From Alphaproteobacteria bacterium (GTDB taxonomy: Bacteria; Pseudomonadota; Alphaproteobacteria; MPNO01; UBA830), in assembly GCA_965243135.1 (NCBI GenBank), contig OZ251539.1, positions 2,944,001-3,008,000 on the forward strand: a stretch of 64,000 nt of DNA, written 5' to 3'. Under the pieces are notes generated by a model. The model was not told the origin of the DNA, made no database searches, and saw nothing but the letters and a program-made list of their open reading frames with translations. Position numbers and translations under genes: made by a program. Shown here piece after piece: positions 546 through 56,858 of this stretch. Each line of letters begins with the position of its first letter. The first letter of the stretch is position 1.

Positions 546-557
546 GGGCGTTCCTAA

Positions 558-2225
558 CCCGGATATCTCACCACTACTGGTTGCATGGGGCCCCCGATTC
601 GCAATACATATAGAAGAATCAACCCACTACACGACCTGCGAAAGGAAACCCCACAGACTGTAAACCGTTGCAGCTTGAGTTTCAAGGCCTCGGAAGCCGC
701 AAGGTGGTCGGCGATTTCGAGGGCGGCCGGCTCAGCACCGATGGCGCGGCGCGACGCTGCTGCGCCAGGCCGACGCGCTGCTCAACCTGACGCCGCGAAT
801 CGCAGCTTGATGACCACCGATGCCAGGAACGCCTCGAGCATCCGGTGCAGCGGCTGGTTTCGCAACGGCTGTTCGGTATTTTACAGGGTTACGAGGATGT
901 CAACGATCACGATTCGGGCCGACAGCGTGCTGGCGCTGGCCGTCGGGTGCACCGACCTGACCGGGGAGGAGCGGGTTCGGGAACGCGACCGCGGCATTCC
1001 GTTGGCCGGTTCGAGCACCTTGAACCGGGCTGGGCGTTCCCGGCGAAGCCGAGACGCACCGGTACAAGAAGATCACGGCCGGAGCGCTGGACGATCTCAA
1101 GCCTGTCCCTCGACGCCTGTCCGTCGCCGCCGAAAGAGATCTGGCTGGACGTCGACTCCACCGACGACCTGGTGCATGGCAACCAGGAGGGGCGTCACTT
1201 CCACGGCTACTACGACTCTTACTGCTACCTTCCGCTTTACATGGGACGACCTGATTTTGTGCTCGCGGTTGCGGCCTGCGAACGTCGACCCGGCGGCGGG
1301 CACGGCGGAGGAATTGGCGTGTGGAGCGCATTCGCGATCGCTGGCCCGGAGACCGGGGTTCGCGGCGACGGCGGCTTTTGCCGCGACGAACTCATGACGT
1401 GGTGCGAAGACAACGGGGTCGACTACCTGTTCGGCCTGTCCCGCAACCCCCGCCTGGCGGAGCGCATCGCCAGGCAGTTGCGCAAGTCGCGCCGCCGCTG
1501 CCTCTCGACCGGCGAGTCGTCGCGGCGGCTCTGCGACTTTCGTTACCGGACCCGAAGGTCGTGGAGCCGGACGCGGCGGGTGGTCGCGAAGGGGCTGCCG
1601 GATCCTCGCGGCCTCAACGCCCGCTTCGTCGTGACTTCGCTGGGCTGCAAGCGGGCGGGGGCGCAGGCTCTCTACGAGGACCTGTACTGCGCGCGCGGGG
1701 AGAACCGCGGAGCAGCAGCCTATTCGCCGACCGGACCTCGACCGCGACCGGCGAACCAGTTGCGCCTCGACTTTGCGACGTTCGCCAGCCGTGGCGGCGA
1801 TTCGGAGGGTCGGCCTGGCCGGCACCGGGGAGGACAGGGCGCAGGCCGGAACGATTCGGACGAAACTCCTCAAGGTCGCCGTCTGCGTTCGGAGGGTTCT
1901 GCTCTCGTTTTCGTCGGTCTGGCCCTGGAAGGATCTGTTCGTCCGGGTCCTGGCGAACCTGCAGGCGGCTGCGCCGCCAGCCCCGACCTGACGCCGCTCG
2001 CGGCCCCGACAGCCCTTTTTCGAAAGCCGGAACGCCGGCCACGGGACAGGTATGTTCGGGTACCGGATTCCACGGCGTCGGAGTCGTCCGCAACCGCTAA
2101 AGTTCGTGTTTCGTTCACAAAAAATCCTTGCTTGCCGACTGCGCCCCGCTTTTCCCGGCTCGCCGGTCGTTCCGAAAACCGCGCCCGTAACCCGAATCCA
2201 GCCCCCTGATTCGCTCTGATGCGGG
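558..2225 (+). mobile_element. IS1380-family insertion sequence, frameshifted transposase
   Basis: Transposase motifs GYEDVNDH, LDVDSTDDLVHGNQEGRHFHGYY, RGDGGF and LYCARGE are spread over several frames. Ends are CCCGGATATCTCA and CTCTGATGCGGG. A 4-bp direct repeat CTAA lies at 554-557 and 2226-2229. Confidence 0.9.
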
Positions 2226-26952: not shown

Positions 26953-28557
26953 ATGGAACTGTTAACGGGATCGGCCGTTTGGCTCGGTTTATTCTCCGTG
27001 GGAGTGCTCGCGGCTTGGCTGAAGGGGTTCCTCAACCAATTCCTGCCGCCGCCGCAACGGGCGTGGTTGGCCATCACGAATTGTCGTCGGACCCGGACGT
27101 CGCGCCCCGAGGATAGGTTTCGTTTCGTGTTGTGCTGGCTGGAAGACGACACTGCGGGACGCGACACGAAAACTGTCGGGCAGGCGTTCACAGGGGTTGA
27201 GGGTGTCGAACTGGTCCGCTCCGCATGTATCGTGAAGGCATCCGGTGCAGCGGATGATTGGCGGCTGGCGATGCGTAAAGGTGCCCGCAAAGTTCTGGAC
27301 AAATGGAAGGCTGATCTGACGGTCGTCGGCTCGGTCAAGGAGTCTGGAAAAGCTCTGAACCTGTGGGTCGTTCCGCGAGAAGGCGACGGCACGCTCCGTC
27401 TAGCGGACCGGCCATACGAATTGAAGAACGTGACGCTTCAAAAGGAGTTCCACGAAGACCTCCGAGCGCAGCTTGTCGCTGTGGCGCTCAGGGCCGTGGC
27501 TCCGCTCGCCGACACCGAAGTGCGCGGTCGAGTTCTGGAAAAGGAGCTGACTGCCGCCACCAAAAAACTTGCGACTTTGCTTAAGGGCGGCACAATCACT
27601 GGGGATGACCATCGCGCTGCCTTGTCTTTGGCGTATGGTGACGCCCTAGCGGCCTTGGGTGAGCGAGAGAGCGGGTCGGAGCGTCTGGAGCAGGCCGTTG
27701 ACGCCTACACGCAGGCGCTTGAGGTGTTCACCCGTGATGGTGCGCCGCTTCAGTGGGCCGTAACGCAGAACAATCTCGGCAACGTCCATCTGATCCTGGG
27801 CGAGCGAGAGAGCTCACCTGTGCGCTTGGAGCAGGCTGTCGACGCCTACACGCAGGCGCTTGAGGTGTACACATGCGAGGACGCACCGTTCCAGTGGGCC
27901 ATGACGCAGAACAATCTCGGCAACGCCCTTCGGACCCTGGGCGAGCGAGAGAGCGGACGGGATCGTCTGGAGCAAGCCATCGCTGCCTACACGCAGGCGC
28001 TCAAGGAGTTCAAGGAGTGCACCCGCAAGCGGGCGCCGCTTGAATGGGCCATGATACAGAACAATCTCGGCAACGCCCTTTGGACCTTAGGTGCGCTCGA
28101 GCAATCGCCGACACGCGTGGAGCAAGCCATCGCTGCCTACATGCAGGCGCTCAAGGAGCGCATCCGCAAGCGTGTGCCGCTTCAGTGGGCTACGACGCAG
28201 AACAATCTCGGCAGCGCCTATCAGACCTTGGGTGCGCTCGAGAAATCGCCGACACGCGTGGAGCAAGCCATCGATGCTTATACCCAAGCGCTCAAGGAGT
28301 GCACCCGCAAGCGTGCGCCGCTTGACTGGGCCATGATACAGAACAATCTCGGCAACGCCTATCAGACCTTGGGTGCGCTCGAGAAATCGCCGAAACGCGT
28401 GGAGCAAGCCATCGCTGCCCATAACAGAGCGCTTCAGGTGTTCGACGCCGAGGCGACGCCTCAAGACTGGCAGATGGCGCAGAACAATCTCGCTCGTGCC
28501 GTCAAACTCTTGCGCGAATTGGAGGCCGCGCACGGACCGGAAGACACTCGGGATTGA
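26953..28557 (+). CDS. TPR-repeat protein with an N-terminal membrane anchor
   Basis: Six QNNL-containing repeats with a 141-bp period (one of 150 bp), CAGAACAATCTC at 27766, 27907, 28057, 28198, 28339, 28480; hydrophobic N-terminus. Confidence 0.88.
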   Translation: MELLTGSAVWLGLFSVGVLAAWLKGFLNQFLPPPQRAWLAITNCRRTRTSRPEDRFRFVLCWLEDDTAGRDTKTVGQAFTGVEGVELVRSACIVKASGAADDWRLAMRKGARKVLDKWKADLTVVGSVKESGKALNLWVVPREGDGTLRLADRPYELKNVTLQKEFHEDLRAQLVAVALRAVAPLADTEVRGRVLEKELTAATKKLATLLKGGTITGDDHRAALSLAYGDALAALGERESGSERLEQAVDAYTQALEVFTRDGAPLQWAVTQNNLGNVHLILGERESSPVRLEQAVDAYTQALEVYTCEDAPFQWAMTQNNLGNALRTLGERESGRDRLEQAIAAYTQALKEFKECTRKRAPLEWAMIQNNLGNALWTLGALEQSPTRVEQAIAAYMQALKERIRKRVPLQWATTQNNLGSAYQTLGALEKSPTRVEQAIDAYTQALKECTRKRAPLDWAMIQNNLGNAYQTLGALEKSPKRVEQAIAAHNRALQVFDAEATPQDWQMAQNNLARAVKLLRELEAAHGPEDTRD

Positions 28558-35938: not shown

Positions 35939-37274
35939 GTGTGAAGACCAGACATGACCTTTTCGCGGTTGCGGGGGATGGAGTATAGGCGCCGGTCACT
36001 GAAGAGCAAGGGGGACGGGGAGCGGTCGTGAGAGTCCGAGGCCGCCGCTCGCGAGCGTTTCGTTGCGCTGGGGGCCGCGCCGAGGGGGCAGGTTGGAGCG
36101 GCTATCGGGTACCGCCTCTGCCTTCGGGGCGAAATGGACGGCGCGCGAGCGCAATGGCAGCGGCGCGAACAGGCATCGGTTCCCCCGGGCGGCAGGGCCT
36201 GGTCAGCGAAGGGGCGGTACGACCGTCAACCGTTCAGCGGCGCTTGCCGCCTTCGTTTGCGATCGGAGCCGGAAGATCCTTCAGGCGGTCCGGGGGATCC
36301 TGCGCTCAGAGTCCGATCGCCGCATCGGGATCGCCGGCGGCGAGCGCATTCATCCAACCGAGGCAAAGCTCGCGGGATCGGAAGCTTCCGTAAGCCGCGG
36401 CTTCCTGACGTTGAACGATCGGAAAAGTCGAGTAGACGTACCGGACATCGTCGCGGTCGGTCACGCCGTAAAGGTGAAAGAAAACGGCGTCCAGCTTCGC
36501 GCGAAGCGAGAGGCGGCGATCCTCGTCCCAAAGAAACGGCGGCAGGACTTCGCCGTTTCCGTCTACGTGGTCGAGGGCGCTGGCAAAAGGGGCCATGTCG
36601 TGGGCCGTGTGAAGACCAGACATGACCTTTTCGCGGTTGCGGGGGATGGAGTATAGGCGCCGGTCACTGAAGAGCAAGGGGGACGGGGAGCGGTCGTGAG
36701 AGTCCGAGGCCGCCGCTCGCGAGCGTTTCGTTGCGCTGGGGGCCGCGCCGAGGGGGCAGGTTGGAGCGGCTATCGGGTACCGCCTCTGCCTTCGGGGCGA
36801 AATGGACGGCGCGCGAGCGCAATGGCAGCGGCGCGAACAGGCATCGGTTCCCCCGGGCGGCAGGGCCTGGTCAGCGAAGGGGCGGTACGACCGTCAACCG
36901 TTCAGCGGCGCTTGCCGCCTTCGTTTGCGATCGGAGCCGGAAGATCCTTCAGGCGGTCCGGGGGATCCTGCGCTCAGAGTCCGATCGCCGCATCGGGATC
37001 GCCGGCGGCGAGCGCATTCATCCAACCGAGGCAAAGCTCGCGGGATCGGAAGCTTCCGTAAGCCGCGGCTTCCTGCCGTTCAACGATCGGAAAAGTCGAG
37101 TAGACGTACCGGACATCGTCGCGGTCGGTCACGCCGTAAAGGTGAAAGAAAACGGCGTCCAGCTTCGCGCGAAGCGAGAGGCGGCGATCCTCGTCCCAAA
37201 GAAACGGCGGCAGGACTTCGCCGTTTCCGTCTACGTGGTCGAGGGCGCTGGCAAAAGGGGCCATGTCGTGGGCC
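35939..37274. repeat. 668-bp tandem duplication (35939-36606 and 36607-37274)
   Basis: Near-identical copies with two substitutions seen (CCTGACGTTGAAC vs CCTGCCGTTCAAC); GTGT microhomology at the junctions. Confidence 0.95.
35982..36009 (-). promoter_or_regulatory. Putative sigma70 promoter upstream of the relaxase (second copy at 36650-36677)
   Basis: Minus strand TTGCTC-N16-TATACT. Confidence 0.45.
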
Positions 37275-48004: not shown

Positions 48005-48873
48005 CTGCTTCGGCCTGTCCCGCAACCCCCGCCTGACGGAGCGCATCGCCAGGCAGTTGCGCAAATCGCGCCGCCGCTGCGTCTCGACCGGCAAGGCGTC
48101 GCGGCGGTTCTGCGACTTCCGTTACCGGACCCGAAGGTCGTGGAGCCGGACGCGGCGGGTAGTCGCGAAGGGGCTGCCGGGTCCTCCGGCCTCAACGCCC
48201 GCTTCGTCGTGACTTCGCTGGGCTGCAAGCGGGCGGGGGCGCAGGCTCTCTACGAGGACCTGTACTGCGCGCGCGGGGAGAACCGGTCGCCGGATGCCGG
48301 AATCACACGGAGTTTCCGACCTGTACTGCGCGCGCGGGGAGAACCGCATCAAGGAACAGCAGCTCGACCTGTTCGCCGACTGGACCTCGACCGCGACCGG
48401 CGAACCAGTTGCGCCTCGACTTTGCGACGTTCGCCAGCCACCTGGTGGCGGCGATTCGGAGGGTTGGCCTGGCCGGCACCGGGGAGGACAGGGCGCAGGC
48501 CGGAACGATTCGGACGAAGCTCCTCAAGGTCGCCGTTTGCGTTCGGAGGGTTCTGCTCTCGTTTTCGCCGGTCTGGCCGTGAAAGGAGTTGTTGGCCCGG
48601 GTCCTGGCGAACCTGCAGGCGGCTGCGCCGCCGGCCCCGACCTGACGCTGCTCGCGGACAGCCCTTTTTTGAAAGCCGGAACGCCGGCCACGGGACAGGT
48701 ATGTTCGGGCGCTGGATTCCACGGCGTCGAAGTCGTCCGCAACCGCGCAAGTTTGCGTTTCGTTCACGAAAAAGCCTTGCTTGCCGACTGCGCCCTGCTT
48801 CCCCGGCTCGCCGGTCGTCCCGAAAACCGCGCCCGCAACCCGCATCCAACCCCCTGATTCGCTCTGATGCGGG
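48005..48873 (+). mobile_element. Partial IS1380 copy (3' half and right end)
   Basis: High identity to 1428-2225; same terminus CTCTGATGCGGG followed by CTAG. Confidence 0.9.
48257..48346 (+). CRISPR. Single repeat-spacer-repeat unit (29/32/29 bp) resembling type I-E geometry, inside IS1380
   Basis: GACCTGTACTGCGCGCGCGGGGAGAACCG at 48257-48285 and 48318-48346 flanks the unique 32-mer GTCGCCGGATGCCGGAATCACACGGAGTTTCC. The other IS copy has one repeat and no insert. CRISPR origin is inferred. Confidence 0.5.
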
Positions 48874-49329
48874 CTAGGGCGTTGCCGCATCTGAACGCCC
48901 CGACCGCGCCGCTCTGCGCCACGCTGTAGCGGGGTTGAAGATTCAGCGGCGCGACAGACCGAAGAACGGGTCGGTTTGGTTCGTGGCAAGCGTCTCCGCG
49001 AACTGCCCGCACCCGTCCGTCGTTCGGGCGGAATCACTTCACCGGTATGGCAACCCGCGAGTTCGCTCGTTCGTTGACGTTGTAAATCAGAACTTCGAGC
49101 GCCCGGAATGAAATGTTCGGTTTCGTGAACCCACGCTCGATGCGACCGGGGTATACGACACGGTTTCCTCACCTTGCGCAACTCCTTCTTGATCGCGTGC
49201 GCCTCCGTACTCGCGTTGGTGCCGGAAAGGCCGCCGCCGTTCCTATCGCGGTGCCCCGCTGGAAGCCTTTCGGCTTCCGGCGGCTCGCGGTCATTCGAGA
49301 ACCCGCACGACAAGCGCGTCGACGCACGG

Positions 49330-50210
49330 GCGCACCGTCATCTCGAACTCTCCCTTTTCGGCCGTCGGCGAGACATCGATTCGCTCGGCCAAAACTTCAG
49401 CAACGCGTCCCGCCGGGTTTCGTCGTTCGCGGCGGCGGCGGCGAACCCCTCAAGCACGCACTTCAGGGTCCAAAGCAGGTCCGCTGTCGAGCGTTCTTAC
49501 GGACGGCGCATGGACTTCACCTCGATCATCAGGGCGGCGACCGATCGCTCCAGATCACCGATGCGCCGCACGATCGCCCGGGGATCCTTTCCTCCCCGCT
49601 CGATGCTCTCAACCAGCAGCGCTATCCTTTCCCTCCCGCCTTCGATCTTCGCCTCAAGGCGGTTCCTTACTTTGCTCGTACTCGCGGATTGCGGAAGCGA
49701 GCAGCGCGTAACCTTCCCGCCACGCTTCGACCCATCAGTGCGCGGAGCGCCCGGTCTTCCGTCCACCTGACGTCGATGCGTATCCCGTTGTCGCAACCCC
49801 GCCTGTCGTACCACCTCTTGCAGGCGCAGCCTCTGCCGCTCCCTGATGGCACCGCCGCAGGTGAGCACTGCCGTCAGGGGATGCGGAACGCGTTTTCCGC
49901 CCTCCGGGACCGGTCGCTGCCTGCGTGACCCCGCAACTGCGCCCGCTCCCAGAGCTCGTCGCCCCGCGCCGCAAATACGGCACTTTCGGAACCGTCCACT
50001 CGGATTCCGGCACGGGACGCGGACCGCTTCGCCCCGCCTTGGGGTCTGTAAACCGGCGGATCCGGCCGTACACCAGAATCCCGCCGTACAGCTTGTTGTG
50101 CAGTATGCCGATCCCACGCTTCCTCCAACCCGAGGGGGCCCATTCGCACCATTCCCTGCTCCTCGAACCCGGAACGCCTCCTCGTTGGGGATCCGGCGGT
50201 CTCGCCCTCG
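49330..50210 (-). pseudogene. Degenerate large serine recombinase, C-terminal part
   Basis: GILHNKLYGGILVYGRIRRFTDP...PESEW and IALLVESIERGG...RRIGDLERSVA match the intact recombinase at 57815-59341. Confidence 0.8.
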
Positions 50211-50214
50211 GGGA

Positions 50215-50251
50215 CCCCATGCAACCAGTAGTGGTGAGATATCCGGGTTAG
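50215..50251 (-). mobile_element. Isolated IS1380 left-end copy
   Basis: 37-bp exact reverse complement of 554-590. Confidence 0.8.
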
Positions 50252-55937: not shown

Positions 55938-56858
55938 TCACTCGTTCTCGGTCTTGGCCCGCCACTCTTCCGCCATGCGTTGCGCGCGCCCGAGTTCCGA
56001 TTTCGACAGACGCCCCGCGATGCCATCGCGCAACTCGACGGCCTTCTCGCGTTCCTCGCCGGCCAGCCGGGAGGCGGCCAGGTTCATCCATACATGCGCT
56101 CGAAGGTAGTTCTGGGGAACGCCCACGCCGAGGAAGTACATGCTCCCAAGCCTGCGCTGAGCCCCGGTGTGTCCCTGTTCGGCGGCGCGGCGGGACCACT
56201 TCGCCGCCTCGGCGGCGTCCTCTGCAACGCCCTCGCCGCTGGTGTACATGATCCCGAGGTTGAACTGAGCTTCGGCGTGTCCCTGCTCGGCGGCGCGGCG
56301 ATACCACTTCGCAGCCTCCGCAGCGTCCTCTGCAACGCCCTCGCCGCTGGTGTACATGATCCCGAGGATGAACTGAGCCTTGGCGTGTCCCTGTTCGGCG
56401 GCGCGGCGATACCACTTCGCAGCCTCGACCACGTCCGCCGCAACGCCCTTGCCGAGATTGTACATGCCCCCGAGCCTGAGCTGAGCTACGGCGAAACCCT
56501 GTTCAGCAGCACGGCGGTACCACTTCACAGCCTCGGCGTCATCCTCCGCAACGCCCTCGCCGATGGCGTACATGTGCCCGAGGAGAAACTGAGCGCCGAC
56601 GTCCCCCTGTTCGGCGGCGCGGCGATACCATTTCGCCGCCTCGGCGTCGTCCTTCGGGACGCCCTGGCCGTTGTCGTACATGAGCCCGAGCCAGGACTGA
56701 GCATAAGCGTTTCCCTGTTTGGCCAGCCGTTGAAAGCCGCGCAAGGCCGTTGCGTAATCGCCACGATCATAGGCCGCCTGGGACTCTTCGAACGTCTGGG
56801 CTGTCGCCGACGCGGCAAACGTCGCCAAGACGAGCGCAAGTACAAGGAAAATCTTCAT
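55938..56858 (-). CDS. Secreted Sel1-repeat protein
   Basis: Signal peptide MKIFLVLALVLATFAASATA; five to six 36-aa repeats (AAKWYRRAAEQG.A.AQ..LG.MY..G.GV). Confidence 0.92.
   Translation of the reverse strand: MKIFLVLALVLATFAASATAQTFEESQAAYDRGDYATALRGFQRLAKQGNAYAQSWLGLMYDNGQGVPKDDAEAAKWYRRAAEQGDVGAQFLLGHMYAIGEGVAEDDAEAVKWYRRAAEQGFAVAQLRLGGMYNLGKGVAADVVEAAKWYRRAAEQGHAKAQFILGIMYTSGEGVAEDAAEAAKWYRRAAEQGHAEAQFNLGIMYTSGEGVAEDAAEAAKWSRRAAEQGHTGAQRRLGSMYFLGVGVPQNYLRAHVWMNLAASRLAGEEREKAVELRDGIAGRLSKSELGRAQRMAEEWRAKTENE

Follow-up and report, generated by a model that had tools for sequence, protein, structure and literature searches.

What placed a unique 32-bp piece of DNA between two identical 29-bp repeats inside a broken insertion sequence (IS)? 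The question is raised by a remnant of an IS1380-family element in the 64,000-nucleotide stretch of DNA analysed here (the window), which covers positions 2944001-3008000 of an alphaproteobacterial genome assembled as a single contig of 6,103,318 bp. The original prediction, made from the window alone, proposed that Cas1-Cas2 from a CRISPR-Cas system of type I-E (CRISPR, short palindromic repeats that are clustered and regularly interspaced) had integrated a spacer off-target, at a site resembling part of a CRISPR repeat. The rest of the genome bears this out: it contains an intact type I-E operon, an array with a 61-bp unit, and eleven more loci built like the one in the window. The 61-bp insertion very probably arose when the genome's own type I-E Cas1-Cas2 integrated a single spacer off-target.

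The 29-mer GACCTGTACTGCGCGCGCGGGGAGAACCG occupies window positions 48257-48285 and 48318-48346. The two copies are 100% identical and 61 bp apart from start to start, and the unique 32-mer GTCGCCGGATGCCGGAATCACACGGAGTTTCC fills positions 48286-48317 between them, all as first predicted. That prediction read the unit as 29 + 32 bp. The total of 61 bp holds, but a split into a duplication of 28 bp and a spacer of 33 bp, the lengths seen in this genome's canonical type I-E array, is the better reading, because the exact chromosomal matches of off-target spacers (see below) mostly run for 33 nt. Read in this way on the plus strand, the 28-bp target segment, ACCTGTACTGCGCGCGCGGGGAGAACCG, has its first copy at 48258-48285, the integrated 33-nt spacer, GTCGCCGGATGCCGGAATCACACGGAGTTTCCG, follows at 48286-48318 (unique part 48286-48317), and the target segment is repeated exactly at 48319-48346. 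Since the exact repeat is 29 bp long (48257-48285), the 28-bp frame is ambiguous by one base. With this base allowed for, the length of the target duplication equals that of the canonical repeat, and the 33-nt insert and the 61-bp unit match the canonical spacer and unit lengths. The target site is a GC-rich tract of alternating C and G.

The element hosting the insertion belongs to the IS1380 family, and its full form is 1770 bp long and present in six copies in the genome. The intact element encodes a 475-aa transposase (NF033539, IS1380 family, 353.7 bits against a cut-off of 180; PF13701). The copies at genome positions 2592k and 4805k are intact and near-identical, the copy at 2766k is 95.6% identical to them, and the copies at 2793k and 2945k (window 554-2221, plus strand) are full-length but degenerate. 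The sixth copy is the host of the insertion, a 5'-truncated, indel-ridden remnant at window positions 48009-48877 (plus strand) that keeps the 3' ~850 of the 1770 bp. In an alignment of all six copies around the site, a check proposed with the original prediction, the 61-bp insertion was found only in this remnant, and the other five copies hold the site once. The identical 29-mer is present once in two of them, at genome positions 2794036 and 2945679. The latter is the other copy in the window, which had been named as the pre-insertion state and does show it: the 29-mer stands there once, at 1679-1707 (plus strand), with no insert. Over the 99 bp up to the end of the repeat, the window's two IS copies are identical. 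The empty sites described here are paralogous IS copies and not orthologous loci. Comparison of 5 kb surrounding the insertion with 30 relatives, which are too distant to reveal an orthologous empty site, gave only weak IS matches (best 71% identical).

Two consequences drawn in the original prediction did not survive this comparison, namely that the insertion shifts the transposase frame and that it places a proto-array on a mobile element. The remnant is not a complete IS1380, having ~850 of 1770 bp, frameshifts and several older indels. Its transposase frame was already broken by the truncation and the older indels before the spacer was inserted, and the copy is not self-mobile. There is no mobile proto-array, because the host copy was already a truncated pseudogene. 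A different idea, that a deletion created the target, was also considered. The three degenerate copies (2793k, 2945k and the remnant) share a 6-bp deletion relative to the intact copies, GCGCGCGGCGAAATGGAGAACC to GCGCGCGGGGAGAACC, which yields GCGGGGA. The idea is weak, as all copies have an identity score of 15-16/28 and one of the three deleted copies was hit. Elsewhere in the window, positions 554-597 and 50208-50251 match each other in inverted orientation over 44 nt (98%). One arm, at 554-597, is the end of the full-length IS1380 and the other is a solitary IS1380 end 1.3 kb past the truncated copy, which makes the region a graveyard of broken IS pieces.

Could this genome have supplied the enzymes? 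There are no cas genes in the window, as originally noted; they lie 2.3 Mb away. A scan of the genome for Cas1 identified three loci at 5.26-5.31 Mb, and the type I-E cas1 and cas2 that the original prediction had called for were found there in a complete minus-strand operon encoding Cas3, Cse1, Cse2, Cas7, Cas5e, Cas6e, Cas1e and Cas2e. Cas1e (TIGR03638, 301 bits, profile positions 2-268 of 269) and Cas2e (TIGR01873, 95 bits, profile positions 1-86 of 87) are full length and above their cut-offs. Cas6e scored 41 bits, just under the curated cut-off of 45. The canonical type I-E array adjoins the operon at 5302437-5307163 and consists of 78 repeats of 28 bp, which read GCTTCCCCCGCACACGCGGGGATGTACC in the sense of the operon. 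Its spacers are 33 nt long in 75 of 77 cases and 34 nt long in the other two, giving a unit of 61 bp. The genome also has a type II system with Cas9 (36-bp repeat, 66-bp unit, ~115 repeats) and a type III-B system with Cmr (~75-bp unit). The three systems lie side by side at 5262000-5316400, and only the type I-E unit length is enriched elsewhere. The exact canonical 28-nt type I-E repeat is also found in three public chromosomes of Alphaproteobacteria assembled from metagenomes (~3.55 Mb), with two arrays in one record and a single exact copy of the repeat in each of the two others.

Units of this length outside the arrays were counted by comparing each 28-nt segment of the genome with the sequence d bases further on (d = 40-100) and keeping pairs that matched at 26 or more of the 28 positions. 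The three canonical arrays and long tandem repeats were left out. There were 27 pairs at d = 61. The next highest counts were 10 pairs for d = 42 and 5 pairs for d = 84, and each remaining distance had between 0 and 4, with no pairs at d = 60 or d = 62. The other CRISPR systems can be excluded because the type II and type III-B spacings (66 and ~75 bp) gave 3 and 0 pairs, respectively. Together with one older, diverged pair seen at a looser threshold, the 27 pairs make up 12 loci of 2-11 repeats, each with its own repeat sequence. The insertion in the window's IS1380 remnant is the locus at 2992257, with 2 repeats. Two repeats are also present at 973350, 1912721 (with a further copy at 1922849), 1968210 (diverged, with a further copy at 1988847), 4477871 and 5621021. 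There are 3 repeats at 2208565, 2510624 and 2545732, 4 at 385672 and 4812991, and 11 at 2742314, where one spacer is present twice. The repeat at 4812991 is 25/28 identical to the canonical repeat, and this locus is possibly an old true array. A further weak 61-bp pair was seen at 5803368, outside the 12 loci.

These counts bear on an explanation that requires no CRISPR enzyme, in which a short tandem duplication arose through replication slippage or the repair of a break and trapped filler DNA from another place within it. A GC-rich alternating CG tract is slippage-prone, and the insert in the window is homologous to a chromosomal gene (see below), as filler DNA can be. What such repair leaves unexplained is the exact 28 + 33 = 61 geometry at 12 loci, with no pairs at 60 and 62. 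It also leaves unexplained the in-register anchor motifs, the AA flank of the spacer sources and the growth of one locus to 11 repeats. We therefore regard repair or slippage as very unlikely.

Empty paralogous sites were not confined to the IS1380 copies. Sites with the flanks joined over one copy were found for the 2742k locus (at 4504662-87) and the 2208k locus (at 3781345-63), and the 1968k locus has two empty paralogous sites (1963259-86 and 1958197-224). The 2742k paralogue is 79% identical and its gene has a YhgA-like PF04754 domain. The element hosting the 973k and 1912k loci has more than 10 paralogues with a single site. These two loci are at the same position in two diverged copies of one repeated element and differ in their spacers, so integration at this mimic took place on two independent occasions. 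The element itself (973100-973700 and 1912300-1913200) measures a few hundred bp and is found, at 80-94% identity, in more than 15 other places, including 2761k, 1995k, 2770k, 4121k, 270k and 3074k. For the 11-repeat array at 2742k, no phage match was found, and four weak plasmid matches were taken as chance. Ten long stop-free frames around four of the off-target loci had no Pfam match and are probably spurious in a genome of 65% G+C. Open frames after removal of the arrays and GC content by codon phase were uninformative on the gene context of the off-target loci.

How were these sites chosen? A study on E. coli type I-E adaptation showed that the enzyme measures its cut both from GCGGG in inverted repeat 2, 8 nt downstream of it, and from CCCCGCG in inverted repeat 1, 16 nt downstream of it, and that mutation of either inverted repeat reduced adaptation ~100-fold (Goren et al. 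2016, PMC5039180). In the canonical repeat of the present genome, the two motifs end at positions 20 (GCGGG) and 11-12 (CCCCGCG). The 28-mer of the IS1380 remnant (48258-48285) has GCGGG at its positions 16-20 (window 48273-48277, plus strand), the equivalent of inverted repeat 2, followed by exactly eight bases, GAGAACCG, and then the spacer. The original proposal that the site mimics the 3' half of a type I-E repeat is upheld by this alignment, in which the 29-mer is in register with the canonical repeat and GCGGG is 8 nt from the insertion point. Overall identity of the remnant's repeat to the canonical repeat is 15/28 in register. Across the 12 loci, in-register identity without any sliding is 13-17/28 at 11 loci and 25/28 at one. 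For random 28-mers of the genome, given the same strand freedom and one base of offset, the chance of at least 15/28 is 0.018 and that of at least 17/28 is 0.0012.

In one orientation, 10/12 loci have either GCGGG at exactly positions 16-20 or CCGCG at exactly positions 8-12, against a null of 0.016 for random positions (binomial P = 9e-17). When the canonical-like locus was left out and 973k/1912k were counted once, the anchor was present at 8/10 loci; the corresponding P of 3.7e-11 was computed for 7/10. The IS1380 site, with GCGGG at the exact distance, and the 10 of 12 loci with one anchor in register resemble in this respect the two-ruler model as set out in that study (PMC5039180). Unlike in that model, one-anchor sites have been used here, as expected of rare events over evolutionary time.

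The spacers themselves provide the next line of evidence. Among 27 distinct off-target spacers, 14 match the host chromosome at 30/33 or better, and seven of these matches are 33/33. The spacer at 5621k is also 33/33 after a one-base frame shift. By contrast, only 2 of the 77 canonical spacers match the host chromosome (2.6% vs 52%; Fisher P = 2e-8). The exact self-matches run for 33 nt in 5/8 cases, 34 nt in 2/8 and 35 nt in 1/8. Of 16 self-matching spacers, 9 have the bases AA directly beside the 33-nt protospacer on one strand, where 8.0% would be expected under the null (P = 9e-7), and in five of these nine the next base in the genome, the first of the spacer, is G. This corresponds to AAG, the protospacer-adjacent motif (PAM) rule of E. 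coli type I-E. When the loci were oriented by the anchor motif and by the AA flank, the two calls agreed at three loci and disagreed at four. Spacer direction may be random at off-target sites, or the orientation calls may be unreliable, the core CGCGCG being palindromic.

The only canonical spacers with a self-match are spacer 35 (5304541-5304573), which is 33/33 at 4133743, and spacer 37 (5304663-5304695), which is 30/33 at 5244039. In each of them AAG is on the side that is wrong for interference, as if correctly oriented self-targeting spacers were lethal in a real array. Five of the 14 self protospacers (4658567, 4716795, 4740655, 4913378 and 4935965) cluster within 0.29 Mb, near the GC-skew minimum at ~5.16 Mb that is the likely replication origin. 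The cumulative GC skew reverses locally between 4.6 and 4.8 Mb. The cluster may mark a hot spot of acquisition, or else an element that is integrated or once replicated.

Where did the spacer in the IS1380 remnant come from? Its sole other match in the genome is at 2151815-2151847 on the minus strand, at 30/33 (29/33 for the alternative frame one base earlier). A search with the insert had been suggested with the original prediction, and it was successful only in part, yielding this homologue in the genome and no match among phages and plasmids. The matching gene belongs to the tctC family, whose products are periplasmic receptors (PF03401). All three mismatches (2151847, 2151826 and 2151817) fall on third codon positions in the frame from 2150909, the 22 non-third positions of the match are all unchanged, and the chance of 3/3 third positions is ~0.04. 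A homologue that had diverged from the tctC-like gene, for example in DNA of a related organism, is the probable source, because the mismatches are all at third positions and the two 29-bp repeats have stayed the same as one another. It is less likely that the spacer decayed once it had been captured. Plasmids and phages (E values up to 1) and 77 other genomes of the order (up to 3 mismatches) yielded no closer source.

The nature of the insert also disposes of the possibility, raised with the original prediction as one that would overturn it, that it is an IS end or a local slippage product, since it is a 33-nt homologue of a tctC-family gene (30/33). A related alternative is that the locus is the footprint of a transposable element with a long target duplication (IS1202 type) that has since lost most of its sequence by deletion. 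Duplications in the IS1202 group have a range that includes 29 bp, and the region is full of IS fragments. However, the insert has neither IS ends nor inverted ends and is a piece of tctC-like coding sequence with third-position mismatches. Unrelated chromosomal genes contain exact copies of seven further inserts of this size. No full-length element with the same 29-bp duplication was seen, the pattern of repeat, 32 arbitrary bases and repeat having 0 matches in the genome- and metagenome-contig collections, which possibly do not include the window's own genome. There is next to no chance that a deleted element of this type accounts for the insertion.

Sequencing runs were used to look for the insertion junction, as originally advised. 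The runs that contain the stretch are mostly labelled sponge metagenome, the others being coded. Run X3 has one 131-nt contig on window positions 48244-48346 that spans repeat, spacer and repeat with 0 substitutions and 2 gapped positions, and X3 may be the source sample of the genome assembly. The contigs of run X1 stop at the repeat ends, which is expected for a multi-copy element. A 61-bp skip in run X4 comes with further differences and so represents another IS copy and not an empty allele of the window locus. Read support for the junction is partial. An assembly error in a multi-copy IS is the alternative here, and the six IS copies and the breaking of short-read contigs at the repeat both speak for it. 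Nevertheless, the genome is a single 6.1-Mb contig, the X3 contig passes through the whole repeat-spacer-repeat structure, and a 33-nt segment that resembles a distant gene except for 3 substitutions is not something that an assembler would make up. An artefact is extremely unlikely.

We propose the following course of events for off-target integration at the IS1380 remnant. Cas1-Cas2 carrying a 33-bp prespacer would have docked on the IS1380 pseudogene, in which GCGGG takes the place of inverted repeat 2 of a real repeat. The two strands would then have been attacked at points separated by 28 bp, and the cut on the spacer side would have fallen 8 nt downstream of GCGGG. Repair of the gaps would have duplicated the 28-bp segment and left a repeat-spacer-repeat structure with the canonical 61-bp unit.

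Several points weigh against this proposal. About 2% of random 28-mers score as well as the remnant's target does. Only one of the two anchors is present at the IS1380 site, where positions 8-12 are CTGCG and not CCGCG, and there is no leader-like AT-rich flank. The crude similarity score is 15-16/28 for hit and unhit IS variants alike, and therefore sequence alone does not explain the choice of site. At duplications of 29-30 bp, the choice of a 28-nt frame was partly guided by the motif, and allowing ±1 base raises the anchor null about threefold by our estimate; this would not alter the conclusion on the anchors. There is no exact protospacer for this spacer, the best being the 30/33 homologue. 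The AAG nearest to that homologue is displaced by one base and is at the end opposite to the one that the GCGGG orientation predicts. The junction is supported by one short X3 contig with 2 gapped positions, from what is possibly the source sample. Finally, we infer the agency of Cas1-Cas2 at this site from sequence comparison.

If the structure is a repeat-spacer unit, does it work as one? For the canonical type I-E repeat, the predicted fold is a stem of 6 bp with a loop of 4 nt (-13.1 kcal/mol). The remnant's repeat is predicted to form a different, weak pairing (-5.4 kcal/mol) with no canonical hairpin, and the flanks of the unit are coding sequence of the IS pseudogene. On fold and flanks, the unit does not look like a functional array, and it probably makes no working guide RNA because its repeat lacks the stem-loop for Cas6e. 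The opposite view accepts integration by Cas1-Cas2 and adds that the mini-array is transcribed and processed to guide RNA. The genome does have Cas6e, just under its cut-off as given above. The off-target arrays that Nivala and colleagues obtained are reportedly expressed and processed. Papers citing that work also state that off-target integration can spawn novel arrays (Nivala et al. 2018). Against a working mini-array stand the weak, non-canonical fold of its repeat and the 3' 8 nt, the guide handle, which differ from the canonical ones, and this view is very unlikely to be correct. Some of the off-target loci may be on the way to working, the best candidate being the four-repeat locus at 385k, whose repeat is predicted to fold into a canonical-like 7-bp stem (-14.0 kcal/mol). 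If no guides are made from the off-target loci, self-derived spacers would be tolerated there.

The event in the window is of a known kind, here natural and at an unusual scale. As summarized in papers that cite them, Nivala, Shipman and Church (Nat Microbiol 3:310, 2018) described off-target integration, termed neo-CRISPR, in E. coli over-producing Cas1-Cas2, found that it can spawn arrays, and gave circumstantial evidence from two other species. One citing passage links these off-target events to IHF-like sites. The likeness to the present case, as far as those summaries go, includes the integrase subtype, the duplication of a non-CRISPR site over the length of a repeat around an insert of spacer length, the resemblance of the sites to parts of the repeat, and the capacity of the loci to seed new arrays. 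In contrast to the laboratory over-expression in those accounts, we are dealing with a wild genome, a native operon and 12 fixed loci, together with paralogous empty sites, one array grown to 11 repeats, and spacers of which half are self-derived. According to a passage that cites Shmakov et al. (CRISPR J 3:535, 2020), arrays that lie apart from cas genes may originate in three ways, and off-target acquisition, the route put forward for the present loci, is proposed as one of them. Within this genome, the off-target loci share with the canonical array the 28-bp repeat, the 33-bp spacers, the 61-bp unit and the AA(G) protospacer flank; unlike them, the canonical array has a strong stem-loop repeat, adjacent cas genes and just 2/77 self spacers. 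Among the papers searched, there was no case of natural multi-locus off-target integration.

Taken as a whole, the chromosome may be a natural record of how arrays are born. One-anchor seeds would be re-used and would grow (2-3 spacers at four loci and 10 at one), and some may be on the way to becoming working arrays. The loci would also hold an unselected sample of Cas1-Cas2 captures, half of them self, because the off-target seeds would make no working guides. We put the chance that this broader account is right at a little short of even. Natural cases in which the states before and after are both visible are scarce in the literature searched, and a dozen events can be followed here in a single genome, together with their empty sites, cut positions and exact sources. 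These events are a natural test of two-ruler target choice and point to a single anchor motif being sufficient. They also indicate which DNA the integrase takes up once self-targeting is no longer selected against, as seen in the excess of self spacers over the real array. For genome annotation, mini-arrays with an odd repeat and a 61-bp unit in type I-E genomes can be real integration products and not false positives. For recording technologies based on Cas1-Cas2, the loci show which chromosomal sequences are at risk of being hit.

Other repeats in the window were noted as well. Positions 35939-36238 and 36607-36906 are an exact 300-nt direct repeat, 668 bp apart. Diverged tandem repeat arrays are present at 27641-28513 (period ~141-150 nt) and 56010-56723 (period 108 nt), and these are probably repeats inside coding sequence.

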